64,000 nt of DNA from Lingula anatina (lineage: Eukaryota; Animalia; Brachiopoda), in the NCBI GenBank assembly GCA_051362555.1, contig CM120644.1, positions 2,488,954-2,552,953 on the forward strand. Reading direction: 5' to 3'. Made by a program: the position numbers and the translations under genes. This document shows positions 25,755-63,436 of this stretch, piece after piece (within the stretch, counting starts at the first letter, position 1; the number at the start of each line of letters is the position of its first letter). The notes beneath the pieces are model-generated. The model made no database searches. It saw only the letters and a program-made list of their open reading frames with translations, and was not told where the DNA came from.

Positions 25755-26497
25755 ATGAACGCCTTCCTTCAAGTCTTGCTGGTGCTTCAGAGTTTGACGT
25801 TCAGCGCAATTAGAGGTAAGCACCGGGTATTACTTGTACTACTGCTGCTACTACTACTACTAGCAGACGCATTGGTCCACGGCTTGAAGTCGCTCGCTGG
25901 CGCAGCGGGGATGAATGAACATAAACGCCAATGTGTACATACAGGGCTGGAGAGTGAAAGAGCTTTTCTGCTCGGGTGAACCTTTAACTATTGACTGCAC
26001 GCCCCCGACCATTCAACATTGTAATCGGCTTTATATTCCTTTCTGTTGTTTACTCTAAGCACAAGGGATAGAGAAAAAAGGTGCTCGACTTTCTAACTCT
26101 GTTAGTGTTAAGAGTTCGCGTGGTGAGATTTTATTGCAACAGTTAACGGGGCTTGTACGCCGATCAGAGAAAGCAGTTTGTCTTACTGTGGCTGCTTTCT
26201 CCCGTACCATCTTTTAGTGAAAAACGCTTTAAATAGGTCTATTTCACTGTGTGGAGTAAGAGGGCATTTCTCGTGTGAATTTTATATAAAATAAAAAAGT
26301 GCATTTCATAGTTATCATCCTGTAAATGACTGTGTCGTTTTTAACAGTTGGTATTGTGTGGATCATGTTCAAATTACCATTTTACAGACTTATACTGACT
26401 GATGCAGGCAAAACGCGAGTAGGATGAAAACACTGATAGAGATGGTTTGCACATCAAGTCCCGTACAGCGACCCAGCCCGTCTTAAGCAATAGATCT

Positions 26498-26535
<38 letters not shown>

Positions 26536-29500
26536 GAGTACAGAACCATTTCAAAGTGATGAAATAACTGGTTAAAACCACCAGGTAGTTCCTTTTGTCT
26601 GCTGTTGAACACATATCTGTTTGGAAGCCTTATGGTCTTTTCCAATTCAAACAAAAGTGATGCATGTGCAAACCATCTACACAGCAAGAAAAGGGAGTGA
26701 AATCCCCCTTCCCCTGCCCCCCCCCCCCCTCACCCACTCCCTCCATTAGAAAAATTCCTGGATTTTCCACTTAGGATATTTGTAAATTCAGCACTAAAAG
26801 CTCACATGTGTACCAGCAAGCCCAGAGGTGGTGTAATGCCGCCAGAGCTAGAAATAATTTCCCAATAGATGGCCTAATGGACACTGAAAGGCCTTAATAC
26901 AATTTCGACAGACGTTAATGTGCAGCACCGCCAGACAATAATTGTACTGTCAGTCCCTTCTAGCCGTTAAGGCCGCAAGCTGCTTCTTGGTAGGGGAATT
27001 GCGCTGTCTGGTGTAGTGAGGGTACTGTAGCATGAAATTCATCTTTAGTCAAATAACTGGAAAATTTTGCTGCATCAAGTTCAACAGTCAAAATGGTGAT
27101 AAAGATGCTAAATTTCCCTTTTCTTGAGCCAAATTAAATTATAATTTAGCATTTGACAAACTCTTTTTTAACATGTGAGTGGGAGAATGTGTTCTATTTT
27201 AAAGCCACATTAGTCTTATCATGTTTCAACAAACATTATTTAACCAGAGAAGAAGGCATGCCTGGCACAACTTATAGGCCTCTCTACTCCTGTTTTTTAC
27301 ACCAGATAATCTAGGCAACTTCTACTCAAAACTCCCAAATCTTGATTTTTTTCTTAGTGTTTGAATCATCATCAACAATTCTGTCTCTTAATTGTAATCA
27401 ACCAGGTGCCTGCAAAGCAAATCTCCTTGAAAAAAACCCTGTGCAGATAAGGGCTACAGTCTGATTTAAGACTGCTGACAGAATGAAATTGAAGTAAACA
27501 TAAAACAATTTTGTTGCTATTTATTTGAATACAAGTTTTTTTTTATTTTATTTTATTTTATTTTTGTATTATTACTCTTAATATTTATCTCTTTAAATTT
27601 TCACCAGCTCATTCTGATGTAAAAAAAATATGAATAAAGATCTATAGGCATAATCATGCAGATCATAGAGGAGATTCAAGCCAGTGGATCGAACAGATTT
27701 GGTTCACTCATGCACAGTGTGAATTCAGCTGATTACAACATAATCTCATTGACCACATCATATGGCAGGAAAATCAGGCAACAGCAAGGCCATAATCTGG
27801 CATCACGAATTTCTATTCAAAAGGCAATGGCTACACAGATTAAATCAATTCTCCCTCTGGAAAAAGATGGATGAAATTATCCTCTGGTGACGAGAGATAA
27901 TTTGCTTATCTTGTCTGCGCTGCTAGTACAATAAGGTTGTTTTTTTTTTCAATTCAGTAGCTAGCCCTCCTTACTTTCTTTCACCAAGCAAGTGACAGGC
28001 AGTAAAGTACCATTGCCTTTTGAGTATGTTTCAATGTAGGGTGTTATTAACTTACGCTATCAGGAAAAAAAATGACTTTATCTCGTCTGTTATCTCTTGT
28101 TGATAACAATAAGAACTTGATTGCTATTCTGTTGACAAATATATGGCAGAGAAGATTGCTGAACTTGATAGATAGAGACCTGATGTCTTTTTCTATCATG
28201 CAAATTCATTCCTGCTGCACCAGATTTAATCTTTATATGATCATGTTATGCTGATGGAGATAATTATTACCATGTCATAAGAAACAGATTATGATTTGTG
28301 TATATGTTATGAAAAAAAATTCTCTGAAAACTTTGACATTTTGGAAATAATCCTGTGACTTGAGTCAGCAGATTGACTTTAAGTTCAACATTTTTAACTA
28401 AACTGTGTTTAATATAATCATTATTAACTAAACTGTGTTTAATATCATATGATAACATTGTAAAATACTGTAAACTTGTGTAATTGCTCAAATACTGAAC
28501 AATATATAGCCAATATTTTGTTTGAGTTATGACCAAAAGGTTTTACTTTGTTTTTAGAATGTTCTGCTGTGAAGGTTAAACAGGGCCAGATTATTTTTTC
28601 TTCTTTTTACCTTTATAACTATGAATTTTTTAAGACTGTTTCTATCTGTGGTTTGTTGACGTTCTGACTCGATCAAAAATTCATTGCCATTTGCCTTTGT
28701 AATGCAACTTTTATGGTATTTAAAGAAGACTGAGTAGGATGGCTTTACAAGATTGCCAGCTCCATGCTTTTTCAGGTATTTTTTTAATTTTTAGAATTGA
28801 CTTTTTTGTTTCTATATGTCTGTAAGTAATCAAAAATTAAACATATTTCAAGTACTAAAACTTTGCTACTCCATTTTCCTCAGATGTTCTTAAGTAGCTC
28901 TATTATTGTAAGCTACTCCTATTACCCTAAAGATCAAAATATACCATGAAATAGACCAAAATTTCTTTTTTTTTCGTTTATCTTACCCAAATTATAATTA
29001 TTTTTAGTTTCTTAGGCACAGTGGTTTTTGAAATTAGTAATACAAGACACGAAATGTGAAAAGATAAGTGGTAGAGTCTTGTAATACAAGAGCCTCAACA
29101 GGAAAATGATGTCAATTAAAATGTACCTTGATCGTGATGTGTAAACAAGCTTTGCTCCACTGTAATACTAGATATATGGCGTTGTAAAAGGACGCCTTTC
29201 AGAGGACAGTAACACAAGACGCAAGATAATTAGAAAAGGTTGCAGTTAAAAGGTATGTTCACCTTGTCAGTAGAAAAGAGCTGGCATTTGATGGCACAGT
29301 TAATGCAAGCAAAAAGCTCTAAAGTAATAACCGACCTTAAAGAGATACATTTATTGTTAAGGTGTGTTTTTAAAAGCCAAAATGTTTACAGTACAATCAA
29401 AGCAACAAATAAAATATTTTTACGAGTAAGTTTATTCAAAACAAAGTAGCTTTCTGAACACTTCACTTAATACTCAGAATAAATGTAATATCAAGTTGTT

Positions 29501-31410
29501 TAGCTTGTAATTAACAATTATACACTGTAACTTAAGTTTTAAACAGGTACAGAATACTTCAAAAGCAGTCAATTTGTCTGCAATAATGAATTCAAAGTCA
29601 AAGTTAGAATTGAATATATTATGATTTTTATTGGTTCAAAGATTCAGGGAAGAAGTGACATTTGTTGAGCAAGTCTTTCTCTGGATGGCCTATAGTGGCT
29701 ATTCTGCCTGAAAAAAAAACATATAGAATACTTCTAAAAAATGGTACAGTAGCAATATTGGCAATGCTGAACATATACATGTGTAAGCACAGGACTGCTG
29801 GGCAGGTAGTAATTATACAGAAGTCAAGGTGCTCCAGAGGTCCTATAATCCTCACTGGCTCAGCATGTTGTGTTGACAGAGCCACGAGCCCATGAAGTAC
29901 ACAGACTTTGCAGCTGGGTTTACACTGGACAATGTGGTGCTACTCTATTACCTACTAGGACCGGATATTTTTTCAGCTACCTTTTTTTGAGACGTGGGGA
30001 AATTTTTGAGGCACTGGCAATCTGAAAGACCTGCACTGCAAGAAATCTGCATGTTCATCTAATAGTCTGAAAAAGAAAAACTTATTACATATTATTTCCA
30101 CTTGCCTAGTATGACTCTACTGACCTAAAACAAAAACAGAGACCAGAAAATGACCAAATTTACCAAAACTGACCGACCAGGCTACAGTTGTGCTGGCCCC
30201 TGGCATGGGGCCATTGTTAACACTTGAGACTGCAACAATTTAGTATTTTTGTAGCATTTAGCCTAAATAGAGCAACTTTATCTTCTTGTATTAACAAAAG
30301 CTGATACACCAGAATGATGTATCTTTCAATAGAAATGGGACTGTTGTGCTGAGCAAGCCTCATTCAGAGATTAACTCCCATGAGCTGTACCCAGGAGCAT
30401 GTGCCAATCATTTGTAAGATATAAACACTGTAGTTATGTTTTAAAGTTCTGTTATAAGGAAAACAAAAATGTTTTATTTGTTTTTACTCTTTTCTAAACT
30501 TTCGTAAACCAGAACCTGCTTTTAGAGAAAAATTTCATCAGCTGTGTTCTGTTGTTATAAGAATGAAGAAATTTTTCTTCTGTCAACAGCTTAATATATT
30601 GAAATAGTTTTTACCTCCAATATTTCTCCTGGATAGAGGCTATTCACCTGGATAGTCTCATTCCCTGATGTTCTGCTAGACATCAAAATATTGGAGGCAA
30701 AAACTATTTCAATATTAAACTGTTGACAGAAGAAAAATAACTTCATTCTTAGAACCTATTTGTACAGAGTGTAAACCAGACTCGGATCCACTTTCAAATT
30801 GGCCCCTGTATAAACCCCACTGGGCCAATTAGAGCAATCAGAATTCAGAAAAGAATGTGTTTTCCACAGCAGAAGGTGGAATTAAACCCCTCCCAGCCAA
30901 CTCCCATATACTTCCCAGTTCTGAGCACACACAATGGGGGCCCCACCACACTATTCATAGAGCTGACCCAGGGAAAAATGACTTCTTTGTATATTTGTTT
31001 AAAGGGGCTTTTTTTTCATAGGTTCAGCTTCAGTACTAAGCCTCTCCGTGGCTTTAGTAGCTCCTGCCATCATTCTTTTTAGTTGCTGACTGTCAGTTGT
31101 CAGTTAAATGGCCAATACCTGCTCTTTGAAAAGTGCAGGCAGAATTATATAGGTGATGCTTAATTTATGTGGGCCCAGCTGTCACTTTGTCGACTACACC
31201 AGCCTTTTTTTATCAAATATTTTAATGCCCCTATATTATGATGATTAGGTATTTTGACTTGGTTAAAAGATAGTGGTGTATTTAAATAAGTGGATACAGT
31301 TGTGGTTTTTTTCTTTCAAAAATTTTAAAATCAGTTGTAAAAACATGATAAGTGTAACTTAGTGTAATATAGAATCTAAATAGTCTTCTTAATCCCATCC
31401 TTTCTGCCTG

Positions 31411-31475
<65 letters not shown>

Positions 31476-34400
31476 TCATGCACACACACACACTTTTATG
31501 CTCATATGCACCCCCCCCCCCCCACACACACACACACACTTTGTCAACTCCCCTTTCTCTTTCTTTTTCTCACACAGGCATACTCCAGTACACAATGTCA
31601 CATTAATGCACCAACACTCACTACACATACTCTCTCTCTTTCCATATTATTCATCAGCATCCCTCTCTTTGCTCTAAGCCTCCCTGCTGCCTCATTGATT
31701 TTACTCTCCAATGTATCAGGTTGTGGTGCAATCTGCATTCAGGAGACTTGCTGGCTAATCCCTCAGAGCTCCATTGTTTCAGAAGTAGTCTAGTCTAGCC
31801 TAATGAGCCTCTAGAGTCTCAGACAGCAAACACGGACAAGCCCACTGCACTATCAAATGTACTAGAGATGGGGAGACTTATTAGTAAGCAGACTCTTAAC
31901 TCCTGTTCAAAGGCAGACATGATTAGTGGACTTGAGAGGTGTTTCCAGTGGTAATGTGACCACTTAACATAGCATTATCTGTTGTGCTATTTCACTGTTA
32001 ACTTCTCTTGGCCATTCCCACTCTTTCTCTCTACTCCCTCCAGTTCTCTAACCCTCTATTTCTCTCTCTCTCCCTCTTACACACACACACACACACACAC
32101 GCACACACACACACACATATGCACACACATACACATACAAACATACACCCAACACAAGCATCATATGCATGCATACAAACACACACACACAGTTACACCA
32201 AGCTTGTAATGAAACAGCCCATTGAGGTGGTTGGTATTGAGATAGACAGACCTAGCCTGACTAAAAACACGTCTTAAGTTTCATATCTCCTCTGTAATTT
32301 CCACTTAGCTGTCTCTTTAGCAGTACATGGGTTATGCATTGTCACAGTGTTTTGCAAATTGCCAACCCAAGGCTTGATTGTAGTCCATATAGTCATTATA
32401 CACCACCAGGGCACATAGACATTTGAGGGATATTTGTGTGGTTGATTTTTAGCAACAGATATGAATACATAAAAGTAATAATATATAAAAACAATAAGGT
32501 TTCCAAACTGCCTTGAAAGGCATGTTCATATGTATAATATTATGTGCAAAATCATGTTTTCTTATACTTTTTCTACTGATAGAATGCTTTGCAGAAAGGT
32601 GTATAGAGACAGAGAAGAAAGATATTTGAGAAATAGCAGTGGCGACTTTCATACACTTTCCAGGCATTATCTAAAACAGTGGAGTGCGCATGCATGGAAA
32701 TAAACATGCATGTCCTTAGTACCAATGAAAATACTGATTTAGGGGCATGTCCACAGTGGTTGGGGCCCTGGAAGAAGTATGCTTACTGTTTATCCCAAAT
32801 GTTTACCAACCAAACCAGTGTTATACATGTTTGGGGCATTCTTTTCAGTGTTGAGGACCATGTTATCAGGATAATGACAGGAGAAAGTAGAGTCATGATG
32901 ACTTTTGAGATATCCCATGTTGTCAAGGGGCTGCCACACCTGTCAAATACCAGGGACATTCTTCACTTACCTGTTGAACTCATTTGAGACTAAGACTGAG
33001 TTCCCATGCCTATATCAATCCATGTGGATTGGTGTGACTCCCTGGGGAGTCTCACTAAATTGCTGTCAGCTTAACAAACTTAAATGTCTGTCATGCCTAC
33101 CAAATCAGCTAGGGGTAAATTAAGATAATTACCCCCTAACAGCTTTACTAGGCATGACAGACATTTAAGCTGGTTAGGTTGATAGCAATTTAGTGAGACT
33201 CCCCAGGGAGATAGATTGATCCAAATATATGTGGAAATGGTCCCCAAATCCTCTCAATTTTGAGAATTCCATGGTGTTCTTGTTGCTGCCAGAAGCTGAC
33301 CCTGAGTTTAGTATATTGAGAGATGAGAGAGAGATATTCTCTCCTAATTCAAATTTTTGAGAAATATTCCTTGTTTCTTATCATGATGTTTCCCCACCCT
33401 CCACCCCTTTTTGCACTTTAATAGGCCCTACTACTAGTATTTAAAGAACAAATTTAATTCTTTAATATAAATGTACAAGGAGAGCTGTAGAGAAGTATAT
33501 GAAATTGATGGTGAAATGGAAATTCTGGATAAAATGTTTTTCTGAAGACAGTCATTAATAGGTTCATTTAAAAAGAAATAAAAAGGCTATAATTCTTGCT
33601 AGGGAATTCATCACAGTTTTTAAGTGGAGTTTTGTGTGCTTTGACCATGGCAAAAGCACTCACTGAAATTTCAGATTAAGCCAACTGATTTACCGATTCA
33701 TCTCAGACAACATCAGCTCATTTTCTTATTTGATAGGCTCTAGTTTATATTTTTCATTTCATTTTCTTTGGTACAAGGCATAATAGTATCATTTACTGTC
33801 TTTAGGAGTAATTCTGGAGTGATAGATTGAACTTGGGCATACAGCTAGATATTATGGGCAGCTCTGCTAGGGGACTCGTAAGGGGGATATGCTTCAGGAA
33901 AATAATGACACATCGAAGATAACATCATTTTTTTTTTCTTAAAACCACATCTGAGTGTCACCCAGGACATAGGGGAGGAGAGGAGATCCATCCGTGTAGG
34001 AGGTGAAATATGCACTGAAGATTGTATCAGCATAGTGTCTGCTTTTTTTAAGGAAAAGGGGTGAAAGGTCATGCCAAATTGATAAGATGGTTAACTGGCA
34101 AGACGACCCTTATTTGGAATAAAGCAGTGGGTTTTGTTAACGAATGGAAAAACATGGATTCTGCATTAGTTTGGATAGTTGAAAAATTCTTAAATGACCA
34201 GAGGAAAAACATAAATACTTTTGTTTTTATATTCAGGAATAACCCAAAACAACTTCAAAATTTAGCTGGTATGCCAATTTAATATCATACAGTATGTTTA
34301 AAAAAATTGTCTACCAAGTTGACCAAGCCTGTTTTCAGAGATCTTCCTCTTGTTAACCAACTTACCAATTTTTTTCTGGCCTAAAAATATTTATCTGCTT

Positions 34401-37122
34401 TTGAGGATAATAGAAAAAGACAGTTTTTCCTGAAAGTAATAGAATATTGTTGATAACAGATAACATCAAGTTGTTATCTTTTTTACGGGGGAAATGTGGT
34501 TTGTGACTTTTTTGACGTGCACACAGTATCAGTCTTTTGGGTCAACCGACTGTTTACCTAACAGAAATGGAATTTGAGATTAAGCAGATTATGTATTATT
34601 TTATGGAAATATAGGTTGAAAGGTAATTTATTAGCATAAAAATTAACTCTGTGTGCAAAATGTGGTAAGAAAGGGTCAAGCCCATCCAGGAATATGATAA
34701 TGGGTTTAGATAAGAGGAAATTGCCAGATCTGATGCCAGGGACCTCACCCTATAAACTGACCCTACTTGAGAAAGGGCATTAAGTTAATTAAACTTAAAT
34801 CAATTGTTCATTCAGAGTGAATTTTCCCCCTGCTCAAATTGGGCAGTTCTTTTGTATCCCCCCCTCTCCCTCACCAACCCCCCCTCCCCCCCTTGCCTAC
34901 TGGACTGAAGTAAACATCCCCTTTTACTCTGCTGAAATTATTAGAATGAATCCTTTCCCCTAAGTCTGTTTATAATGCATCACAAAATAACCAAGTTAAA
35001 ATCACCAGAGATTAAGATATCTTAGAGTTTATTGTACTTTCTATAGTTCTATCAGAGAACCCATTCCCATAGATTTTAGATCGATCTATCCCTGTGGGGA
35101 GTTTCACTAGATTATTGTCAGCTTAGCCGGCTTAAGCGTCTGTCCTGCCTACTAAAAGCTGTAAGGGGGTAATTAACTATGGTACGTGCTCCGCTGACTG
35201 CAATTTAGCGTGAACCCCCAGGGAGTTACCGGTAGGTCGATCTAAATATAAATCTCTGGATCGATCTAAATCTCTGGGAATGCACCCAGAGAAAGAGAGA
35301 GAGAGAGAGTTAAAACGTGTCTGTATGTAGCTTATGTCGAGTGCAATTTGAGATTTAGGTTTAGAAATGCTGGAGAAAATATGGGACTCCAATGCTTCTC
35401 ATAAAATAAGAAGACTTAGTTTGTTGTGTTTTGTTTTTTCATGTCAAGTAATAAAACCAGCACAACTGCAGTCTATGTCCACACTTTAAAAAGATGAACT
35501 ACTCATGAAGATAACCAAAACTTTTAAAGTAACTGACACATTTAAGACATTTCTCAGGCAAAGATAGAATATCACTTTAAACTGACACCCTTTTCTGCCC
35601 AAAAAAAGTGCCTACGCCTGAAGGAGGCTCCCATTTCAGGTAGACTTGACACAGTGAAGGGAGGTTATAAAAGAAGCGGAGCACGAGTCAGCATAAAAGC
35701 ACTCATCTAATATTTACGGAGCAATACAGCAACAAGAAATTGCCATATTACATTACCATTATGGTGAGTTTGCTGTATTGACAAGTTGCGTTAAATTATA
35801 ACCTCTTTTGTGGTCTGGTAAATGCAGGGGCCTATGGTGTGTGTACTGCTTTGTGGGACTTCCAGTCTGTTTTGTTTAGTTCCTGACTCTCTCTCCTTCT
35901 CTCTCCCTCTCTCTCTCTCTCTCTCTTTCTCTCATTAGTGAATATAAAAAGGACATTGCAAATCAAAAGTAAAAACAGAAATGGATTTAAACCCCTCTTC
36001 CATCTCTTTCCCTCTCTCTGTCATTGGTGAATTTATAAAGGCCTAAGTGAAAGAAAAGAGGAAATGGATGAACCCCTCCTCTCTTCTCTCTCTTTCTCTC
36101 TCTCTCTCTCTGCTGTTGTGCTAATAAAAATTCATATAGATAGACTTATATGAGAGCAGGAATCTTGGACATTTACAAGTACCACCATTTCTCTAAGATT
36201 CTGAGTAGTGTCCCCTGTCATGTTATAATATCATGAAAAGGGCCAGGGTGCAGGGGGGGGGGGAGGTTGAGGCCCTCTTCTGGGTCTTCTAGAAGACGGT
36301 CAGATTTTCAAGTTTACATTGATGGGTATGTAATTTTTTTCTGTTGGAAGACTCAGAAAACTGTCAAAAATATCTCTGGATCCGCCCCTGAGGGGGGGGG
36401 GGAGAGGTCAGGATAAGTGAAGTTTCCCTGCATTTATTCTCAACGAGAGCAAACAAAAGTAAAGGCAAATAATAATAGTTCTAATTCTAAAAATAATAAT
36501 AATAATAGTAAAGCTACATTAAGCCAGTTTGCTTTTTACCACAGTGAAAGACTTAAAACTAGAACGTACAGGTCCATAAAATGTGAGTCATTTGTGAATG
36601 GGGCATGACTTTGAATTAAAAGTTTGTCCCTTCAGAAGTACAGTTTCTAGAGCCGAAAGAAGTGAATAATTGTAGCATTAATTCAACTAGACAGGTACAT
36701 TAAATTGGGGTCTTATTAGGAAAAAACAGTATCACAGGTGCTTCACGGCGGCCACCTGGGCCTCAAGTAAATGCAATTTTTGTTGGAAGACATCATTATT
36801 TATTTCGGGGAAATGAACTTTCTTTTTATTTGATAGAGTTAAGATGGATGACTGTGGTTATCGCAAATGTGTTGAGGGTTTAGGGAAGTTTGGGGCCTTT
36901 TGCTTGATTTAGTCGTTGTTGTTATTGTTGACTGTAGTATAGTAGTAGAAGTTGTTGTTGTTGTTATTTAGAGCATTAATTTATTAAATTTGTTTTTCTC
37001 TCACACAAAGTCAACCAAGTGTACTGACACACACATACCCTTTTCTCTTTCTCACACACACATACATACACATACACACACACACTCTCTCTCTCTCACA
37101 CACATACAAACACACACCTCTT

Positions 37123-37155
<33 letters not shown>

Positions 37156-50000: not shown

Positions 50001-52653
50001 GTGCCATATGTAGAAAAAAAAATTATCTCGAAATTTCGAGATACTATTTTGAAATTTGAACAAAAAAAATTTTTATCTCGAAATTTCGAGATAGCATTTT
50101 GAAATTTGAACAAAAAAAAAATTATCTCGAAATTTCGAGATAGCATTTTGATATTTGAGCAAAAAAATTTATCTCGAAATTTCGAGATAGTATTTTGAAA
50201 TTTGAACAAAAAAAATGCTATCTCGAAATTTCGAGATAATTTTTTTTTTCAACATATGGCACCAGTCGGCTTCCGTAAAAATGTGCAGTACGGTAATGGA
50301 TAATAAATTTTGAACTCCGGAAAAATAAAACATAATGCTTGGCAAAGCAGACAACTTGTGGTCAAAAATGACATTATTTTATCAAATTTAAACTTCTGCA
50401 ACTTCAGAGAACCTCCCATTTCAAGAACTTTGACCAAAATGACCTTTTCTTTATTTTAATTAATTTTTTCTGTAGGAAATTTATGGCACATTATGGTAAC
50501 TCCAAAATTATAACATTTAGTCCCTTATATCTCCAAAACTGGCAGAGATAGGTCCATAGTTACTATTGAAGTTGAATAGGAAGTCATATACTGGCAATCT
50601 TACTGTGACCTTGACATTGACCTTTGACCTACTTTTCACCATGAACTGAACTTTGCAAATTTTGCTTCCCTTTTATCTCCAAAACTGGCAGAGATAGGTC
50701 CATAGTTACTATTGAAGTTGAATAGGAAGTCATATACTGGCAATCTTACTGTGACCTTGAAATTGACCTTTGACCTACTTATCACCATGAACTGAACTTT
50801 GCAAATTTTGCTTCCCTTTTATCTCCAAAACTGGCAGAGATAGGTCCATAGTTACTATTGAACTTGAATAGGAAGTCATATACTGGCAATTTTACTGTGA
50901 CCTTGAAATTGACCTTTGACCTACTTTTCACCTTGAACTGAACTTTGCAAAATTTGCTTCCCTTTTATCTCCAAAACTGGCAGAGATAGGTCCATAGTTA
51001 CTATTGAACTTGCATAGGAAGTCATATACTGGCAATTTTACTGTGACCTTGAAATTGACCTTTGACCTTCTTTTCACCATGAACTGAACTTTGCAAATTT
51101 TGCTTCCCTTTTATCTCCAAAACTGGCAGAGATAGGTCCATAGTTACTATTGAAGTTGAATAGGAAGTCATATACTGGCAATCTAAATGTGACCTTGAAA
51201 TTGACCTTTGACCTACTTTTCACCATGAACTGAACTTTGCAAATTTTGCTTCCCTTTTATCTCCAAAACTGGCAGAGATAGGTCCATAGTTACTATTGAA
51301 GTTGAATAGGAAGTCATATACTGGCAATCTTACTGTGACCTTGAAATTGACCTTTGACCTACTTATCACCATGAACTGAACTTTGCAAATTTTGCTTCCC
51401 TTTTATCTCCAAAACTGGCAGAGATAGGTCCATAGTTACTATTGAACTTGAATAGGAAGTCATATACTGGCAATTTTACTGTGACCTTGAAATTGACCTT
51501 TGACCTACTTTTCACCTTGAACTGAACTTTGCAAAATTTGCTTCCCTTTTATCTCCAAAACTGGCAGAGATAGGTCCATAGTTACTATTGAACTTGCATA
51601 GGAAGTCATATACTGGCAATTTTACTGTGACCTTGAAATTGACCTTTGACCTTCTTTTCACCATGAACTGAACTTTGCAAATTTTGCTTCCCTTTTATCT
51701 CCAAAACTGGCAGAGATAGGTCCATAGTTACTATTGAAGTTGAATAGGAAGTCATATACTGGCAATCTAAATGTGACCTTGAAATTGACCTTTGACCTAC
51801 TTTTCACCATGAACTGAACTTTGCAAATTTTGCTTCCCTTTTATCTCCAAAACTGGCAGAGATAGGTCCATAGTTACTATTGAAGTTGAATAGGAAGTCA
51901 TATACTGGCAATCTTACTGTGACCTTGAAATTGACCTTTGACCTAATTTTCACCATGAACTGAACTTTGCAAATTTTGCTTCCCTTTTATCTCCAAAACT
52001 GGCAGAGATAGGTCCATAGTTACTATTGAAATTGGATAGGAAGTCATATACTGGCAATTTACTGTGACCTTGAAATTGACCTTTGACCTACCTTACAATG
52101 AACTTAACTTTGATTGCACCATTTTTAGTTATATATATTTTTTGCATATTTTGAAAATTCTTGTTGATTGCATTTTTTACAGCTTGTCAAGCACAAGACT
52201 GGTGGCTGCACCCCTTATTTTGTGTATGTGGGGGTCTATACGAATGCGCTTGCTCCAGCTGGTGGTACAATATTCGGAGGCGGTATCGCCTCTCTGATCC
52301 TCTAGTTCATTTTTATTTCAGATACAAGTGCCCAGGTAACAGTGGCCTCTGACATCTATACCTCAGACCTCAACACTCACCACATTGAGAACACCCACAC
52401 TGTAAGATTTCACAACATCAACCCTGTCTACATCGCTGTTCCAACCGTGGGTGTGTGCTCTCTCCTAGCTATCATCATCTTCACCATTTACATGCTCAAA
52501 CGGCATCAGGCGCATTATTATAAAGCCTGCGACAAAGCAGGAAATTTACAGACAGTCAGTTCCAGGACAAGTAGCGAGGATAGTTCAGTGCGTGATATGG
52601 AGGATGTGTCCGTGGAACAGTCCATACAGAGTGACTGTAGGCTGTTGGTGTGA
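25755..52653 (+). CDS. Divergent BAMBI-like, kinase-less TGF-beta type I receptor-like membrane protein (223 aa)
   Basis: Exon 1 25755-25815 (signal peptide MNAFLQVLLVLQSLTFSAIR, donor G|GTAAG, phase 1). Exon 2 46654-46932 (IQCECTTADC..TC..HSCY..RGC..LLC..HCCFTNGCN, 10 Cys, phase 1). Exon 3 52322-52653 (TM PVYIAVPTVGVCSLLAIIIFTIYMLKR, ~50-aa tail, TGA). Total 672 nt in frame. Linking exon 1 across the 20.8-kb intron is inferred from phase and signal peptide. Confidence 0.8.
30558..30751. mobile_element. Small foldback MITE
   Basis: About 65-bp arms: TAAGAATGAAG..TTTTTCTTCTGTCAACAG..ATATTGAAATAGTTTTTACCTCCAATATTT and its reverse complement ending CTTCATTCTTA. Confidence 0.8.
31415..31540. repeat. 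Compound (CT)n(CA)n microsatellite
   Basis: Directly visible. Similar tracts at about 26500, 32060-32190, 35890-36110, 37050-37175, 40725, 40980-41041, 46150-46190 and 46990. Confidence 0.95.
32990..33245. mobile_element. Palindromic ~250-bp MITE family, copy A
   Basis: CTCCCTGGGGAGTCTCACTAAATTGCTGTCA...TTAAATGTCTGTCATGCCTA is mirrored by TAGGCATGACAGACATTTAA...GCAATTTAGTGAGACTCCCCAGGGAG. Related copies at 1-42, 35055-35290 and 52742-53005. Confidence 0.8.
35055..35290. mobile_element. Palindromic ~250-bp MITE family, copy B
   Basis: CCATTCCCATAGATTTTAGATCGATCTATCCCTG ... GATCGATCTAAATCTCTGGGAATG. The left end is the reverse complement of window positions 1-35. Confidence 0.8.
39092..39453. 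mobile_element. hAT-like MITE (CAG...CTG termini)
   Basis: 14-bp TIR CAGACATGCTGAAA / TTTCAGCATGTCTG. Both flanks share GGGGAG, but there is no perfect 8-bp TSD. Confidence 0.65.
44839..45029. mobile_element. Small MITE
   Basis: CATTCAGAA..GGACTAACTAATCCGA..CAAATATGGCAACCCA is mirrored by TGGGTTGGCCATATTTG..TCGGACTAGTTAGTCC..TTCTGAATG. A related fragment occurs near 7600-7630. Confidence 0.7.
49988..50275. mobile_element. TA-flanked MITE nested in the HINE
   Basis: TA|CGGAAGCCGACTGGTGCCATATGT ... ACATATGGCACCAGTCGGCTTCCG|TA. The interior holds five copies of the palindrome TATCTCGAAATTTCGAGATA at 47-50 bp spacing. Confidence 0.85.
50521..52110. repeat. Tandem satellite array, ~11 x 146 bp
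   Basis: CTCCAAAACTGGCAGAGATAGG recurs at 50531, 50677, 50823, 50969, 51115, 51261, 51407, 51553, 51699, 51845 and 51991, an exact 146-bp period. Confidence 0.98.
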
Positions 52654-52741
52654 CCAGGTTCAGGAATTTCCAAATTTGACACTCTCACAAAAAGACGAAG
52701 GGAGTAGGGGGCATGTTATTTTGCAGGCATGCCATTTTAAA

Positions 52742-53005
52742 CTAAGACTGGGTTCCCATACCTAGATTGATATAACTGGATGGACCCATCTCCAAGGGGT
52801 TTCTCGCCAAATTGCTTTTAGCGTAAACGGCTACTTTGTCTGGCATGGCTACTAAAGCCCCTAAATGATATTTAATTGCCCTCTAAGAGCTTCAGTGGGT
52901 GTGCGGGACATCTAAGCTGCTGAAGTTGATAGCAATTTAGTGCGAACCCCCTTGTAGATAGATCGATCGAAAGTTAGTTCCATAATCTATGGGAATGGTC
53001 TCTTA
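52742..53005. mobile_element. Palindromic ~250-bp MITE family, copy C, in the 3' UTR of the BAMBI-like gene
   Basis: CTAAGACTGGGTTCCCATACCTAGAT ... GATAGATCGATC..ATCTATGGGAATGGTCTCTTA, similar to copy A. Begins about 90 bp after the stop codon. Confidence 0.75.
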
Positions 53006-56000
53006 ATTCCCTCACTTGTCTGCCTGGAGCAGTGCATTGTGGGAAATTATTATCCACCATATTGAAAAATCATAAACAAAAGGCAAAAACCTCTTTCTGT
53101 CACTTTAGACACATAAGTTATCATAAGGAAAATTGAGAGATAAAAGAAATGGCTAAATCATTTGAATGGAAAACATCATGTGATATTATACTTGATTGTT
53201 TGAAAGCAAAAAAAAGTCCTAAATCTTAAATCCCAATCTCGGAGGATAAATTTACTTCAGATGTGTGTTATGTTAAAAGTAACTATTTCATGGAATCCCC
53301 CTATATAAGAGTATTCAAAAATGATCAGTTAAACTGAACTCTTTGGGGAAAAAGAACATGAAGAAATCTTTGATTGAATGTGTTAGTTGTGACTGAATGG
53401 GGAAGATTGTGTCATATAGGGTTGAAGAAATCCACAGTTGATTTGCAAGTTTCAGAACAAAAAAAAAGTCTCAAGTTCATCTCTCTTAAACTTTGTAAGT
53501 TTTTGTCTATATGTTTGGTAAGATATTGGTGCATTGTAAATAGTGAACCATTGTAATTGTAACACTGTATCGATCACTTGTAAATAATCAAATGGTGCTA
53601 CCCAGAGTCCCAGTTGGCAATGGACTGATATTGGTAACTGATGACACATGTTACTGTTACTTTATAACTATATCTGGTGCTGTATAGGATGTTAACTAGT
53701 TGTTGTTATAGTAATCCTGGTGCTTAGTGTAGGTTACTCCCTGCAACATGTCATGGGCAGATGTATGTTTGTGGGAAGAGTTCAGTCTAAAGTTGGGAGG
53801 AAAGGACAGGATGGTTATTATTATTGTCTTCAATTTTTTATTTATTTTTTTTAATTATTATTTATTTTTATTTATTTGCTTATTTATTTGTTTGTTTGTT
53901 TACTGGAGGTCCAAGATCATTTTGATTTCTAGTATGGTTTCTTTTACCATCCAGGAAAAGAGAAGGCATCTGAAGGCATGACAATTTTTTTATTTGCAAT
54001 CCATTTAAAATACTGGTAATTAAGATCATCTTGTGTGATTGAAATAAACCTTAGTTTTCTTCACCAGTACACCTCTAACCTAACAAACACCTAATCAGCT
54101 ATATCGTTCTTACGCCAAAGTGCCACTGAAATCCAATTCCTCAACGTATAGTTACTTATTTGCCAAGTGAAGTTAGTTGTGTTCTGTCGTGTAAAAATAA
54201 ATACAATGCATTTAAACTAGATTAATACTATGAAAAAGTACATCAGTTGACATTATTATCTTTTTACGAATGTTTTAGTGATTTTAACCACCCACTTCAG
54301 AAACAAATGATTAGTGAAACGGCTACATTTTTATCTTGTCACAAGGGCGTCATCAGGCATACCGAGTCTACTTTTGTGTATTCTTATAAAATATTATAAT
54401 GTACATAAAGTATCAGTTATATTGCTCAAATGTTGACATGGAGATTGTCATTGTAAAAACGGTTTACTGTATTATGGTATGTAATGTAATTGTGTATCAA
54501 TTAATGGTTTATAATAAAATGTAATTGTGATGTAAGTGTGGAGTTTAGTATGGTAATTTTTAAGCCCTCTTTTTTTCCCGTGGAAAGAAAACGAGGCGAG
54601 GGTTAGGAGAGCAGTGGAAAGAAGCCGGTTCGTATTTCAGTGCTTGATTTGCAGTCCACGCTCCTTTTTAATAAATTCTCCCCGAAACCAAAGTAACTAA
54701 GGTTAGGCATGCATTGTTTTAGGTCATATACGTCGGGCAGGTCCACGTTTTCTGTCTATTAAACTGGAAGGACCCTTCAAAGTGTAGATTTGTCTCGGCC
54801 AGATGAGTTTTAAACAAGTTAAATGTGCCCGGAATGTGATTTCATTTTCCATTCCTTCATCCGTTTTAATTAATTATCCAACCAACGAATATTTGAGCGT
54901 AAAACTAATATCGGTTCCTTCTACTCGCTCGATATTACAAATCTGTTTTCTTGAAAATGAAAACATTCGTAGAAACTGTTTCGTCTGCCATGTTTTTTTA
55001 TGTCGTCAAACTAGCACATAAACATACAAAAGAATGAACGTATTAAAACAGCACATTTGCTAACAGATCAGACTAAACGGAAAATATCATATTACCTACC
55101 TCACAAAAAGAAAAAAAACGGTTTATAATTATAAATAACTAATATAAATGAAGTTGCCACACAAACGCAAAGGACTGTAGGCCTACCATTCACATTAATA
55201 CACATAGAACAGAAATTGCCATTAGAATACTAAACAACACAAACTTTATAGGACTAGACCACATAATTTAATTTAAATATTTTGTAGTGGAAATATTTGC
55301 ATAACTATCCAGCTACGTCAGTTTTCTTCTTTATATATTTTTGCCAAGTGAAACAGAGACTATCTTGCTTTGTTTTTTCAAAATATGTTAGTTTTAAAGT
55401 AGCCTTATAAATATGCTCTAAAATAGTTCTGGTCGATTCAAAGACCTTTCTTTCAATTAATTAGTTGCTTAAATAAAAAAAATTAACTCATGTTAGCATT
55501 ATGTATTTTATTTACTTATGATAGATAGAAAGATAGATAGATTGTGGTCATTGTGTTAGGTGGGTCCATAGCACAATTTGCTTCCCACTCCTCCCTCAAC
55601 ACGGGGCTTACTGAAGAATGCGCAGCTTTACCATTGCCTTACAAAATGTCACATTCCAAACGCAATCCTCCATGTGTCATCAAAATCCAAGCCTCCACAC
55701 AACACAAAAAGAAACTATACAGACTTCAAATGCCTGCTTTTTCTTTGTCTCACTGACAACTTGTGGACTGAAAACGGAACTCCTTAGTCGTCTGCAGGAC
55801 AAGAGAGTGCAGATTGGATGTCGGCCTAAAAGTCTCTTAACTTTTTTATCTCTGCTATCATAGGTAAGTGGACCCAAGCTTTATACAGGTAACCGGTCCA
55901 CACGTAAAGAAAAGGGGGGGGCAGTCGGAGTGTGTGGTGGATACTGACACATTTATCTGTGTAATGTTAGCATGTCGTGAGAACAAACTGGGTAGCCTAG

Positions 56001-56069
56001 CCGTAAAGAGGGGCTTTTAGTCAGTACCATTAAATCTTGACTTGGCGTTCGTCCTATTAACAGTTAATA

Positions 56070-56103
<34 letters not shown>

Positions 56104-57940
56104 CAGAGTAAATTGACTTCTGCCTAAGATGCCAAGGTGTGTTTTATGTGACCAAAGAAGTATCAAGGCCGAGCCTATCTCTGGCATGTTTTTTGTTTTT
56201 TTTTCCTTCTTTTGGTTAAGTGTCTTCCTAATTTCGGCTTTTCTGGAGGTAAATTGAAACGCAGTGTTATACAGACAAAACTGCGAACAGTTGTTAACAA
56301 ATACAAACACACACACACACATACAGAGAGAGAGAGAGAGAAATAGGGGGAGGACATAGCCCACAAATAGGAAAAGCGCTAGCCGGTATAACAAATAAAG
56401 TAGCACTCGACAAAAAATTGAAATCTTTTTTAAGCACAGTGGGAAAAACAGAAAAACAATTAATTCTTTTATTTTCGCTTTTTCCACTTGCGTGACGAGG
56501 CAGGAGTTGAAACCGCGCCAGTGGACCGTGAGACACAAGAACGGCATTAATTTTATTAATGTTACTTTCACTTAAAAGGAACAGAAATAGCGGCGTCTTC
56601 AGTGGACCGCGAAATGAGTCAGAAACTTTTATTCTGAAACTGGTAATCTGGCGCGATTGCTTTGTCTACTTTTCATCTAAAAGAAAGGTTCCAACACTTA
56701 TTGAAATTCTGATTCAAATGTGGAATTTCTTCCAAATTTTCCACTTTCTATGCCTCCATCTCTTCTCATCTCATCTCATCTCATTTCTCCCTGCATTTAC
56801 TCTATCAAAGAACCTCGGCGACCAGATCCTTGTTGTTTACCTGTGTTTACCAAAGAACGCGCCGCTTTGGGGCTGTTTTCCTGTTATTTGCAGCGTCTAC
56901 GCAGCATGGCGACGTTTTTACGACTTCGATACCGTTCGTCTGCCTGATAAAACACGTCTATTTGTGACTAATCTAAAGAGCGTTGTTGTATCTATAGTCT
57001 CTAGTGTTTTATAGTTATATGGACATGTTTACGTTCCTGGAGGACCCTGGCTGCACGTTCTGTGACGGATTAGAAGATCGATACTGAAGTGCGCCGCTCT
57101 GAGGGGAAGTACATGTAAATCCAGGTGTGTTAGGAGAGAGAGAGAGAGAGAGATATCGGTTGTCCCCTTCTACGCTTGTTCACATAGGCCTAAAATTTCA
57201 ATTTGCAAGACATCAAGGGTTGTTCAGTAGGCCTACATTGTGACAAATCATGTTTGGAGCCACTGAAAGAGGCTTAGCGAGAGGGACAAAGAGACTCACC
57301 CAATTCCAGAAGAAAAATTGATGCATCAGTTTTTTCTTTGTCTGTTTCTCCCCCCCCCCCCCCCTCTTTTTTTTTTTTTTTTTTTTTTTTTTCCACATCA
57401 ACAGATCCATTATTTGAAACGTACCGACATTACGCTTATTTCAAAACTAATACGTGTGTAGGCCTACACCACAAAGTGAATTTTCAAATATATTGCGCGG
57501 ATAGCAATATTTCTAGAAAGCATCAGAACACATCTTTAAACATTATGCTGTCACTTTTCTTTTATATCACGACTTAACTTGGGACATTCAACATTATATA
57601 CGCTCGTACGTCTCAAGAGACTTCTTTTTAATCTCCAGATTTCAATAATAAGCTCCCGGCCACACGTGACAAAAACCACCCGATTCTGTACAAACAGTGA
57701 CTTAAATGAACTTTAACGCGGAGGAATAATTGAAACAATAAATCAAACAACATATGCCTGGTTTCAAGTTTAAATTAAACAGTAAGATCTGTTTTTATTG
57801 GCAATAATAAATAGATCATATCTTTACTCATAAATACACAAAACGAGGACACGGTACTCGTTTTTTAACAACATACAACGTCTTTTGAAACAGGTTTCAT
57901 ACAGAATTATTTACACCAATGTACAAGTTCATATTTACAG

Positions 57941-60900
57941 CTATACAACAGTTAAATTCTCTGTGCTCTGGGGCTGCGCGCCCCATATCACGATAGAGCT
58001 TCGAGCGTCAGAGTCGCTTCCACTCCCGCTCCCTTTTAATTTCTCATAATCTGTCTTTTCGGGATCAATTTTTATATGAACATCTTTGTATATTTTGTTT
58101 TGCTTTCCTAACATGGCGTTGTTGAAATGAGCATTTTTATTCCCATGGTCGTAGAAGTGATCTGCGACGTAGAGTTGAGCTTTTGTCAAAGTTTTGTGAT
58201 GATGACGCAACTTCCGGTGACGTAATCGGCTCGCGTCGTGTTTGAGCATGCGCACTGCAAGAAGTACGAGCATTATAAGAATAAATCCGCCAGCTATTGG
58301 CACGGCTATAACCGCGGCTTTAAACCAGAGTTCTCTCTCTATGGAAGGGTGGTTGGACTTTTCGTGAGCTTTCTCCTCCGAAGGAAAAAGTAACGAACTG
58401 CCGTCTCTTTGGTCTTGCTTTGCTTCTGAAAAAATAGATGATAAAAATCTTGAGTGTTGCTGGCTTAAGAATAAAAAATTTAAAATATTTGAAAAGATTT
58501 TTGTATCAATCTTTATCAACCAGCAAATATTCACTAGGCCTATATTTTTCTCCGTGGTCTTAAACTCAGAAAAAAATCTGAACACATCTAATTCGCATTT
58601 GCTCAAGACCATTAACTAGTTCTGTCACAAGAGAAAATTGCCGTCTTTTCAGCAAACCATTACCGTTATTCAGTATAACTTAGCGTGTCTTTTGCGGCCG
58701 TTAAAAAGTACTTAGAGAAATCTACGATTTGCAGAAATGCTGATAATTCGCTTAATTTGCATTCAGTCCCGAAAGGAAGTAAATTGAATTACATCGACGT
58801 CGCATAAATCTAGGCAAGACAAAAGAATGCCATTATCAAATTAGGGAGTTTGAACAAGAATCGTTCCCATTTGATGTCTCTTTGAAATGGAATTGAAATT
58901 TATGTAAATGGAAAATGGGCGTTTGTCAGACCGCGTGGCCGGGGCAGCATTTCCGCTTTAACGTATATCCGTGGATCGTCGACACTAGGGTGTCATTCAC
59001 CTACAGAACGCAGGCTCTCGTCCCTCTGCGTTTAACAGACGGTCACAATCTTGATAGCCCAGACAGACTGACATATTGAATGAACTACCAGTCAACCAGG
59101 ACGTCCGAGGGGACATTTTAACCACATAAGCACACGCTAGCCATGTATTACCGTAGGTGTATAGGTTAAAACTCCCCTATAGATCAGATATAGGCCTATA
59201 GATGTCATCCAGTTTCTACACAGCGCTTGCAACGTGATACTAAGGGTGATTAAGGGACCAGTTTACTTTAAACAAAAACCCCAGTAGGTTCGTCGAATGC
59301 GTTTCATGCCCGTTCTTTCAATGACGATGGTTAACAATTGTTTTTGTTGCGAAGTGTGTGTCATATTTCGTTTATATATATTAGTTTTATATCTTCACCG
59401 ATTTCATTTTATTTTTATTGGTCCCAACCCACATCATTACGGGCTATTAATATCAATGAAATGTTGACAAGTGTGAGCTATGGGTAATGATTTCCCTAGA
59501 AATGAAAACGGACAAAAAATTAATTGACTTGGAATGATTCACGGTATTCTAGACCAAGCAAGTTTCTAGGTAGGCCTACGCTCCAATCATAAAGGTTTTT
59601 TTACCACAAATAGTTTTTAAGTATCAGTTTCAACTTTGTACAAAGTATTATCTGAACATTTCATCTGAAACACCGTGCAAACGCAGTCGATCAAAAAGGT
59701 TCTGATCTTCAAAATTCAACTTTGCTCCGATGGAACTAAAGTAATTAATCATCGCAATATTTGAAGGTGAAAATTAAAAGATGTTGACAGTGAAAAAAAA
59801 AGATGACATAGGACTACAATCTCATTTTGTTACGACGATTTGAGCACAACGCCGATCCGAGACCGTGACACCGGGGTGTCATTTTGTTGTTTGCGTTTTG
59901 GACACCAAAATGGTTCAGATCCGTGCAAACCTTGTCTGATCGCGTCTGCTGAAATCTTTTCGAAAGTCTCCTCTAAAATTGACTTGTTTGCCTTGTTTGA
60001 ACCCTGCGCCGACAAACACAGACGTAATCAATTGTTTGTCATGCTTGAAACAGAACACAACAGGCTTACTCCTAAACCGTACAGATTTGGCAATAGTAAA
60101 CAGATAGAGTTCCATACCAGGACAATTTTTAGCAAGGCACTTGCAGGGGAAAACGACAGGAATGGCAATGGCGACCACATCAGCGGTTCTCTCGCAGACG
60201 ATGAAAAAATAGTCCCCAGTCAAGTGGTCGCCATTAAGTGCAGTTGCAGCTAACAACGCTCTCAGCCATGCGTTTTATTCCCAAGCATAAAAATCCAGCA
60301 GATGCACTTTAACTTTTACGGTTTAAATACAACATGAAACGATTTTAAATCACCATAGTCGTCCTGCGTGGGTCGAAAATAGTGATTATTAAATGAAATG
60401 GCGGCGGTTGCGAACTTTAGTTCAGTATGTTGTCAGTGTTGATGAATGGCGACTGCCACTGATAATGTTGAACGATTGCGTTAATAAAAAAAAATTCAAC
60501 ACGGTTTTCATGGACGGTTTACCATAAAATTACCCCCACTTCGTCTCTTCTAAAACGACTTTACGACGAATCAATTCTTCCGCCCTACAGACCATCTCAT
60601 TTAACTTTCCTATTATCTATCTAGTCCAAAAACGATTTTGAAAATTACACCGAACTTCGTGAAAGCTTGAAAGATGGGGTCGCAGTATCGGAGATAAGTG
60701 TTACTTCCACACGCTAGCTGCGGTGGCTTTATAAGGAGATACCGTCTGACATAGCAGGGTATATTCTGGTTCTTAATTATTCGCCGGGGAGAGCGTCTCT
60801 ACTAGGTTTGTTTTGTGATACTTGTTAAAATGAGTTTCCCTGGTAAAGGCACTGAAGGCAGTTTATTTCTTTCATTGAAAATATCTTTAGTTTTCTAATT

Positions 60901-62384
60901 CAGGTCTTGTTGGAAAATAAATAAATACTGTTTTGTTTCATTTTCTTTCTCTTTTTTCAAATATAAAGTTTGTTTAATCAGGTTGTATGGTTTTAAGAGA
61001 TCTTAAGATAGGGCCTACATGGTTGTTTCTGTAGCTTTTTTAATTGGGCTAATTTCTAGAAATAAAATATCGCACGTAGCAATGCATGTTTGTCTACTTA
61101 TAGTTCGCTTTTACTCATGCGGTTGATCTCACTAGGTTAGATGTGGTCTAGAATTCCGCCGGGATAAAAAACAACAAATGACGCAACATGGTACAATTTT
61201 CAACCCCACTGCTTGGAAAGTATCGCAACGTCTGTTTTCATTTGAAACACGGTACCAGACACGTCCGCTCAATCAGGTTTCATCTGTATCTGAGCAGACG
61301 ATCGGCGCATCATGGCGGCTCAACCTGGTGTCGTCTGCCACTTGACAACGATATGGTAGAAAATCGCTCGTGCTGTTGTTAATTAACAGTTAAACCAGAC
61401 TAGATAAGATGGGAGACTTTTTTTGAAGGGCGATTGTCGGCAACATCAGAAGACACGACCGTTGAAAGGCGAACAAAGTTACAAGGAAAATGAATACGCA
61501 CCTTGTGCCATAGGCGGGGCTTAAGGTTAGGATCAGTGGAGGAAATAATATGCCGTCGTCTAGATGCAGCCATCTCGGCAGATCTCTTACAATATATTTT
61601 TTTTTTTACTCATTGATCTTTTTTTTCCTTAAAGAGTACGTAGAACAAAAACACTACAGTCACGAGATAAGGTGATGTTCACAATTATCACAAAAATTAC
61701 GATGAGAAACCTTTGCCGCCAATGGGCCGGACGGGCTTAGTAACATAATTTCACATCCACTTGGGGGCGAATTCTGAAAGGCTCATTAAAAAGTCTGAAC
61801 TAAATATTCAAGACAGGAACAAAATAAAGGCTTTCCATGGGAGTAATTTTTTCGACAGAAGTAAGACAGACGCAGTTGTAGGAAATCCACCCCCCTTTAA
61901 ATAAGCACGTCCGTGGTAAATAATTCAGCAAAAATAATAAGGTGTCCACAAGCGTGCAGATCAAGCCGTAAAACATTTAGAGGTAATTTCTATCATGGAG
62001 GGGAGACAGCGCCGCAAATTGCTGATTGTCTAGCAGAAAATCGATCTAATTAGTTACAGTTCGTTCCAATTTATCGGAAAGAGAATACTAAAGGTCACCG
62101 CCGAGCTCGACTTGGAAGTATGCGGGGCAGATTTATTGGAGCACTGGATAAAATCTCGAGTGAATTCTGCAGAGATGTCAAATTGCATACTCAGTTCTAA
62201 ATTGATGCTTAACAGTCCCATTTTGAACACTCTTCCACAATCTCGCCTTCTTTTATGTCTGCAACCGTTCTGGAACTCCAGTGTGCAAAAGTAGGCCTAG
62301 ATGGTTGCGACCAATAATCGCATTTACTCTTCAACAATCTTTTTTAACAGAGAGGCTTGCTGCAAGTCTGTGTTATCAATAAAC

Positions 62385-62425
<41 letters not shown>

Positions 62426-63436
62426 GGCGGGCCATTAATGCAAGCAAGGAATCACCAAGGGAACTGTCGTCAAGGTTCAAACATTGTGCACTGATTTGTT
62501 TCTCAATTATCTTCATCAATTTGTCGGCGTCAGCTTACCTAATTGTGTTTTTATACATTAATGAACGTTATACGTAATCAAATAGCTGCAGAATTTACCA
62601 GACGCCGTGTTTCGTGACGACGTTGCTGTTGCGTGAGAACAATAGTGCAATTAACGAGTCTGAAAATGCTGTTGTATAATTAAGACTCCGCTAAGTGCAG
62701 TTTTGCCGTGTGTTGTTCAAGGAGTGCGCAGAGATAGCAATAGATATACTTTGTATCAAGAACAAAGCGGTATTCTTGACTTCAAAGGCAAAATTATGCA
62801 CTTAAAATAGGTGCAAGCGCCTACGTGTACGTGCGTGGCCTACTTTCGTTGAAGACGAACTTGCGTTACCGATGGTGGCAACTATAAATTAGAGCCCATA
62901 TCTCCTAGAAAAGGTTAAATGTGTCTAGAAACGACGCTTATTCCACATAAGAAATAATAGATTAACCTTTTTATTTTAGTGCAAGTCATATTTTTTCTAG
63001 GTGGAATCCAAACTTCATCTTCCTTGTTATTTACTTCGTAGAACCCTCGGCTTAGATGCTGAATTAATTATTTTTTTCTACAAAACATTTTTTCAATTTC
63101 TTGGCACAATCTTACCTTGCTTGTAAGTTGTCTCGTTAGTTCTCGTACTGACGAGAATGCTGATGTCCAAACTGTCCATGTAGTTGCACATATCCTCTTT
63201 ACAGCACATGATAATTGGCATATCTGGGTTTTGGGTGGCTGGGTTTTGCGCCCTTGCAACGTCCCTTGGCCGATCACAGACGGCGCTTGCTGACTGCGAC
63301 AAACTCTCCATGCATCCGTGAACGGAGCGCGAGAGCGTCGTGTCAAACATCAGCTGCGTGAAGCACTGCCCCCTGGACTTGCACATGTAGCCCGTAGCTA
63401 TACAATGGGGTTCATTGCAGTAGCACCGCACTTCAC
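57941..63436 (-). CDS. BAMBI: BMP and activin membrane-bound inhibitor (5'-partial; signal-peptide exon beyond window)
   Basis: Exon 63436-63116: GEVRCYCNEPHCIATGYMCKS...HGC...CCKEDMCNY. Exon 58425-57941: RELWFKAAVIAVPIAGGFILIMLVLLAVRML, ending ENLTVV-TAG. Both closely match vertebrate BAMBI (GEIRCYCD..HCVATGYMCKS, CCHEDMCNY, KELWFRAAVIAVPIAGG). Phase-1 GT-AG junctions. Confidence 0.97.
62385..62425. repeat. (ATT)n microsatellite in the BAMBI intron
   Basis: Directly visible trinucleotide run. Confidence 0.95.

Follow-up and report, generated by a model that had tools for sequence, protein, structure and literature searches.

A 64,000-nucleotide stretch of the Lingula anatina genome (assembly GCA_051362555.1, contig CM120644.1, positions 2,488,954 to 2,552,953; hereafter the window) carries on its plus strand a receptor gene that we call X, whose neighbour on the minus strand is BAMBI. 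Our analysis shows that X is a real, expressed gene. Rather than a copy of BAMBI that is drifting away locally, it is a typical member of a conserved invertebrate family that has no name so far. By profile comparison, BAMBI is the family nearest to X, and the sequence data place X outside the clade of BAMBI orthologues. We are fairly confident that the X family is an ancient BAMBI-related family, and its split from BAMBI is likely to be older than the divergence of protostomes and deuterostomes.

Structure and expression of gene X

A preliminary description of the window, made from the sequence alone, had joined three distant exons into a kinase-less single-pass receptor of 223 amino acids. 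Splice sites, intron phases, RefSeq and RNA all bear out this structure, which is laid out below (TM, transmembrane; UTR, untranslated region).

25755..25815, plus strand: coding exon 1 of X, with the signal peptide and a phase-1 donor; reads of the 5′ UTR start at about 25611, and the N-terminus is the same as in RefSeq XP_013409175.1
46654..46932, plus strand: exon 2, with the entire 10-Cys ectodomain of predicted type I-receptor fold
52322..52653, plus strand: exon 3, with the stalk, the TM helix, a cytoplasmic tail of 50 amino acids and the stop, without a kinase
52654..54520, plus strand: 3′ UTR, approximate end; RNA depth extends to about 54509, with none from 54510 to 55777

The exons have GT..AG ends and join in phase 1 on both occasions. 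The resulting protein is hydrophobic at its N-terminus and has ten cysteines in the ectodomain, the last in a CCx4CN box, and a single TM helix at about residues 148-172 ahead of the tail; an in-frame stop lies 15 codons upstream of the ATG. It is identical at 221 of 223 residues to the L. anatina protein XP_013409175.1, listed as ‘uncharacterized protein LOC106172815’.

Four RNA runs, chosen by species label and some of them stranded, were mapped to the window. The junction 46932/52322, one of two that the preliminary description had named for checking, is present in all four (9, 3, 16 and 7 reads). Splicing was read directly at this one of the two junctions; the other, 25815/46654, spans a 20.8-kb intron and lies beyond the mappable stretch. 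Exon 1 is covered by RNA on the correct strand, with depth dropping to zero past its donor in each of the four runs. Among the best-supported RNA variants listed for coding exons 2 and 3, 12 of 16 are synonymous. AATAAA signals at 54043, 54196, 54513 and 54670 lie around the end of the 3′ UTR.

Read-through of X into a kinase, which would have contradicted its description as kinase-less, was looked for and not found: no kinase frame, downstream or elsewhere, is found among the open reading frames of at least 110 amino acids in the window, the stop follows the 50-residue tail, and the 3′ UTR is covered by RNA.

Intron 2 is rich in repeats between 48170 and 52307, with a tandem array of 146-bp units (10.9 copies, 50521-52112), a 49-bp array and a stretch that occurs twice (48944, 49761). 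RNA depth over these repeats reaches 500-1,300, mostly plus-strand in the stranded runs, with many reads mapping twice, and the signal probably stems from a repeat family transcribed elsewhere. Two RNA runs, X7 and X8, show many fixed differences from the window, most mapped reads being 90-95% alike, which suggests a distinct population or a cryptic species under the same label.

An unnamed family in nine phyla

A profile of five X sequences, searched against proteins of 102-490 amino acids, gave 123 protein matches at E ≤ 0.01. With a profile of 66 sequences and no length limit, 341 clusters were found among 1.84 billion representatives at E ≤ 0.001, 82 of them at 1e-30; the best 150 of the 341 were inspected. 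Named members of the family come from a brachiopod, annelids, molluscs (chiton, gastropods, bivalves and cephalopods), nemerteans, arthropods (chelicerates, a sea spider, a millipede, crustaceans, cockroaches, orthopterans and hymenopterans), tardigrades, a horsehair worm, starfish and a hemichordate. No chordate, fly, nematode or cnidarian was seen among the named hits, many hits carrying no name, and this absence suggests that X may have been lost in those groups.

The family has the ectodomain motif GC-x5-PLLCENRRP-x6-WPxLxCC-x4-CN. All members have a long variable stalk, and a TM helix and cytoplasmic tail are conserved throughout, while a kinase motif occurs in none of the 213 stored proteins.

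Two proteins listed in databases as ‘BAMBI homologs’, from the scallop Argopecten (P0031) and the starfish Patiria (P0061), are actually members of the X family. The ectodomain is doubled in a Periplaneta protein (P0023) and in two Hyalella proteins (P0134 and P0147), the repeat in P0147 looking like an artefact of the assembly or gene model. Two copies of X are present in the horseshoe crab Tachypleus (P0029/P0062) and in the spider Parasteatoda (P0041/P0088), as expected after genome duplication. Gene structure also varies: three X loci (L008, L010 and L011) have an extra intron within the ectodomain, and two (L002 and L003) have no intron between ectodomain and TM helix.

Kinship with BAMBI and age of the family

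Lingula X and Lingula BAMBI are 21% identical. The X and BAMBI profiles match each other at E 4.5e-12 over ectodomain and TM helix. The X profile scores 29.7-49.2 bits with 8 of 12 BAMBI ectodomains and 22 bits with the best solved type I ectodomain, and the recognised non-family proteins among its 150 listed hits are BAMBIs (amphioxus, lamprey and nemertean). Pfam BAMBI matches 38 of the 66 X members and BAMBI_C 21 (E ≤ 0.1), mostly weakly. Ahead of the Cys box, a W-P is found in the X family and in five of nine BAMBIs. The shared TM pattern IAVP..G..........MLK of the preliminary description was recovered, although G and MLK are separated by 13 residues and not by 10. Its account of the exon layout stands for the ectodomain, which both genes place in a phase-1/phase-1 exon, and for the last exon, with TM helix and tail; the exon for the BAMBI signal peptide lies outside the window, as does the BAMBI promoter. 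In both window genes and in five loci of relatives, the phase-1 acceptor precedes the first Cys codon by 11 nt. Domain exons of phase 1 are frequent among single-pass proteins, so this shared position lends modest support to the kinship.

X was rightly described as lacking the hallmarks of BAMBI: the motifs RCYC[ND], GYMCKS, DMCNY and WF[KR]AA occur in nine of nine BAMBIs and are not the X-family consensus at those columns. In an unrooted tree of ectodomain and TM helix (35 selected rows of X and 9 of BAMBI, 123 columns), X and BAMBI rows are split with support of 100/100, with protostomes and deuterostomes on each side. Lingula X nests among the spiralian X rows. A phylogeny that included receptors of types I and II had been proposed; ours separates the X clade from BAMBI within a set of X and BAMBI rows only.

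Two more recent origins were tried on 24 of the tree rows and rejected: a young duplicate, joining the two Lingula genes (p-AU 1e-54), and a duplication confined to spiralians, joining all spiralian X and BAMBI rows (p-AU 1e-5). The old duplication proposed for the pair is supported, and it is far older than brachiopods. Of the label ‘highly divergent BAMBI-like paralogue’, the old duplication and the proximity to BAMBI hold; ‘highly divergent’ does not, the end branch of Lingula X being 0.42 against a median of 0.34 in a conserved family.

We consider it likely that X is sister to BAMBI. Several results weigh against this placement. With the four BAMBI ectodomains from crustaceans, the X profile reaches no more than 5-6 bits, and the solved type I ectodomains are all from vertebrates, so that receptor scores may be understated. 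Lingula X itself matches neither Pfam BAMBI nor BAMBI_C at the curated cut-off; the profile scan that had been suggested for it returns these models only for its relatives, mostly weakly, and finds Activin_recp at E 0.021, under the cut-off. In Atlas models an X ectodomain resembles type I receptors (TM score 0.64-0.66) as closely as it does BAMBI (0.60-0.63), and an Atlas feature search with one X ectodomain gave low scores only. Finally, the tree, unrooted and built without a type I outgroup, dates the split but cannot show a clade of X and BAMBI.

Predicted ectodomain fold and putative ligand face

The structural model of X has a mean pLDDT of 76, with ectodomain blocks at 80-98. Compared with solved structures, it finds eight type I ectodomains on top (Z 7.4-9.7; the best with a root-mean-square deviation of 2.8 over 74 aligned residues), the top matches including ALK1, BMPR-IB, BMPR-IA, ALK2, ALK4 and ALK5. 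Ly6 proteins and type II receptors follow at Z ≤ 5.8, and a Foldseek search had the same outcome. Activin_recp is found by Pfam in 58 of the 66 X members, QVR in two. The X ectodomain is therefore predicted to have the type I receptor fold; as for the Ly6/uPAR proteins, named earlier as an alternative, type I ectodomains rank above Ly6 in both fold and sequence.

Residues 72-81 of X (TPLLCENRRP) are 76-100% conserved in 63 family ectodomains; except for the Cys, the same columns vary freely in nine BAMBIs. In the model these residues fold as a short helix, and in alignments they fall on the SDFQC segment of BMPR-IA/IB. The corresponding helix of BMPR-IA, with Phe85 and Gln86, is described as a binding hot spot for BMP-2 (PMC2946932). 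The family appears to keep a ligand-binding face under strong constraint.

Cytoplasmic tails

The tails of X are clade-specific. A Y[DE]NK-type end is found in 21 stored proteins (chelicerate where named), the three ambulacrarian tails end in GDPY..EKFF, and ERSSSGSE[TS]KL[LF] ends 53 of the 69 proteins that carry the TM motif of spiralians. The spiralian motif, at a median of 44 residues (minimum 36) after the TM helix, aligns in register with a 12-mer of the GS loop of type I receptors (GS sequence from PMC10635513), with a score of 15.3 that is equalled by 0.16% of shuffles and by 23 of 39,829 background 12-mers. The preliminary description reported no GS box; this is correct for Lingula X, in which the motif is eroded (score 11.5), but most of its spiralian relatives have a GS-like end. 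Arthropod, tardigrade and ambulacrarian tails lack the motif. We saw this likeness by eye first and scored it afterwards. TGF_beta_GS is missing from the Pfam families listed for 26 and for 66 X members and matches none of six tails, and a PDB search with one tail gave no match. A phosphodegron or a PDZ-type end is a rival reading of the spiralian tail. That the tail is a remnant of the GS box seems to us possible, though the less probable case.

Possible function of X and alternative explanations

The invariance of TPLLCENRRP and its alignment to the hot-spot helix of BMPR-IA make a ligand-binding decoy the likeliest role for X. The ectodomain would bind a BMP or activin ligand in place of a type I receptor, and the resulting kinase-less complexes would fail to phosphorylate Smads, so that BMP/activin signalling would be damped. 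On balance, we regard this mechanism as the best overall explanation, by a little more than an even chance. X would then most likely work as BAMBI does, as a kinase-less brake, without being a BAMBI orthologue. BAMBI is reported to interfere with the formation of receptor complexes and to work with Smad7 (PMC3333473). The parts under conservation differ: in BAMBI they are the first finger and the TM/juxtamembrane segment, in X the loop with which type I receptors grip their ligand. The two may divide the labour, BAMBI acting on receptor complexes and X on the ligand. Two observations tell against a decoy. At the position of the hot-spot Gln of BMPR-IA, X carries a Leu; its grip cannot be identical to that of BMPR-IA, and its ligand may differ. 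In planarians, knock-down of bambi-2, a putative X orthologue, was described as looking normal, whether alone or together with bambi (bioRxiv 10.1101/2022.08.31.506052).

The same invariant helix could instead serve a positive co-receptor that binds one conserved ligand, either to hand it on to signalling receptors or to retain it on the cell surface. The long variable stalk of all members would suit such a role, and the clade-specific tails imply that the shared function of X is extracellular. Betaglycan, a co-receptor that is also kinase-less, is reported to help or hinder according to cell type (PMC3333473). Against this role for X, truncated type I receptors act as dominant negatives, the family nearest to X is an inhibitor and, judging from its fold, X would fill the very type I site on which a signalling receptor depends. 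All considered, a co-receptor seems rather improbable to us. Slightly less probable still is a truncation of its own, by which X would have been cut, without any part of BAMBI in the event, from a type I receptor at a point just past the GS box, leaving a tail that type II kinases would use as a substrate or for docking. The in-register GS-like motif in 53 of 69 proteins would be explained, and structure does not set BAMBI apart from type I receptors as the nearest relative of X. However, TM helix, intron position and profile scores point to BAMBI, and a GS remnant would also fit with a single truncation ancestral to X and BAMBI; the motif was first seen by eye, is missing in arthropods, tardigrades and ambulacrarians and eroded in Lingula itself, and left the Pfam and PDB searches silent.

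We find it quite unlikely that X has left the TGF-beta pathway altogether and turned its three-finger ectodomain to another membrane partner in the manner of Ly6/uPAR proteins. Its ectodomain motif is indeed unlike that of BAMBI, and Ly6-type folds do appear in the structure search, but well below the type I ectodomains; moreover, X has a TM helix and tail, no glycosylphosphatidylinositol (GPI) signal, and adjoins BAMBI. A broader scenario, which we hold as a tentative minority view, would extend the decoy. The protostome-deuterostome ancestor would have had two pseudoreceptors, BAMBI and X, derived from one truncated type I receptor, and X would be a phantom type I receptor that takes both ligand and type II phosphorylation, since it would still have the helix that grips the ligand and, among spiralians, what is left of the GS box. 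It would have been lost in chordates and flies and would still lie beside BAMBI in slowly rearranging genomes. If true, its loss in chordates and flies would explain the gap in the textbook inventory of the pathway.

The tail-to-tail pair and the rest of the window

The neighbour of X is the RefSeq BAMBI homologue XP_013409167.1, with two exons in the window.

63116..63436, minus strand: BAMBI ectodomain exon, phase 1/phase 1; Pfam BAMBI E 5.8e-18
57941..58425, minus strand: BAMBI last exon, with TM helix and cytoplasmic tail; Pfam BAMBI_C E 2.1e-15; identical to RefSeq XP_013409167.1

With both Pfam models passed, this is the canonical BAMBI of the preliminary description, and the 5.3 kb given there between the two stop codons is 5,287 nt, the genes lying tail-to-tail. 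The BAMBI junction 58425/63116 is found in three of the four RNA runs (14, 0, 17 and 8 reads), and in the stranded runs the RNAs of X and BAMBI are on opposite strands. As RNA of the X 3′ UTR ends at about 54,500, the two transcripts appear not to overlap.

The adjacency was seen in this Lingula window only, and the two-gene module from an inversion that had been proposed corresponds to a tail-to-tail pair in one species. In Tubulanus, X and BAMBI each lie on a contig of 14,301,023 bp, with accessions 113 apart. For 16 metagenome X loci, no BAMBI-type gene is among the rows listed, the downstream sequence of at most about 2 kb being too short to test adjacency.

One composite BMP-response consensus has no match in the window, which does not include the BAMBI promoter. 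An isolated GGCGCC at 25585 can be put down to chance (3 found, 2.1 expected). The tail of Lingula BAMBI (57941-58425, minus strand) has a GSGSGS near its C-terminus that other aligned BAMBIs lack and that is probably due to chance. Elsewhere in the window, a broken Tc1/mariner transposase occupies 2571-3561 on the plus strand, with a helix-turn-helix piece (E 7.6e-6) and a DDE_3 piece (E 1.2e-9) in separate frames.

Implications and comparison with known systems

Inventories of the BMP pathway were built from genes of frog, fly and sea urchin, and X has mostly been missed by pathway surveys. Since nine phyla have retained it, the ancestral bilaterian toolkit gains a component, and this in animals used to study the evolution of dorsal-ventral patterning. 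If the ligand-face inference is true, X is a natural ligand-selective decoy, unlike BAMBI. Our results are also a warning that some database ‘BAMBI homologs’, such as those of scallop and starfish, belong to the X family.

Prior notice of X-like genes is partial and concerns planarians and arachnids. We found no paper defining the family in the open-access literature, subscription journals lying mostly outside the search, and no second BAMBI-like family is described in the accessible parts of PMC4218986, PMC7535936, PMC13719153, PMC11011141, PMC4244043 and PMC11595613. The paper on the Lingula genome reports bambi as single-copy in Lingula and present in two copies in Lineus, together with a ‘partial duplication of acvr1’ in Lingula (PMC13121700). 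One of these remarks on Lingula may refer to X, whose locus identifier is absent from three supplementary files of that paper.

The planarian gene bambi-2 (dd23400) resembles X in being an additional BAMBI-like gene, kinase-less, with one TM helix and a weak activin-receptor domain, and is likely to be its orthologue. In the accounts available it is treated as a BAMBI homologue and not as a separate ancient family (bioRxiv 10.1101/2022.08.31.506052; PMC10545109). A tree with proteins of Owenia, octopus and spider groups it with BAMBI and keeps it separate from BMPR1, and its RNA interference (RNAi) is reported to give no phenotype (10.1101/2022.08.31.506052); its expression at the dorsal midline is lowered by bmp4 RNAi (PMC10545109). 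‘BAMBI-like’ genes, two in a spider and one in a harvestman, are named in passing in PMC12717030. The same spider species has two X proteins (P0041 and P0088), with which its two ‘BAMBI-like’ genes may be identical.

Ly6/uPAR proteins are GPI-anchored or secreted LU domains without a tail, whereas X has a TM helix and a 50-residue tail. With the type I receptors (BMPR-IA/IB, ALK1, ALK2, ALK4 and ALK5), X shares the ectodomain fold, a CCx4CN box followed by a Pro-rich linker, a short helix at the hot-spot position and, in spiralians, a GS-like tail; it differs in having no Ser/Thr kinase, no GS box recognised by Pfam, and Leu for the hot-spot Gln. The closest likeness is to BAMBI, which likewise has a signal peptide, a 10-Cys type I-like ectodomain, a single TM helix with IAVPxxG and a short kinase-less tail. 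X nevertheless forms a separate clade with a different tail and no chordate among its named hits; it lacks RCYCN..GYMCKS, DMCNY and WF[KR]AA, and it conserves the TPLLCENRRP segment that is variable in BAMBI.

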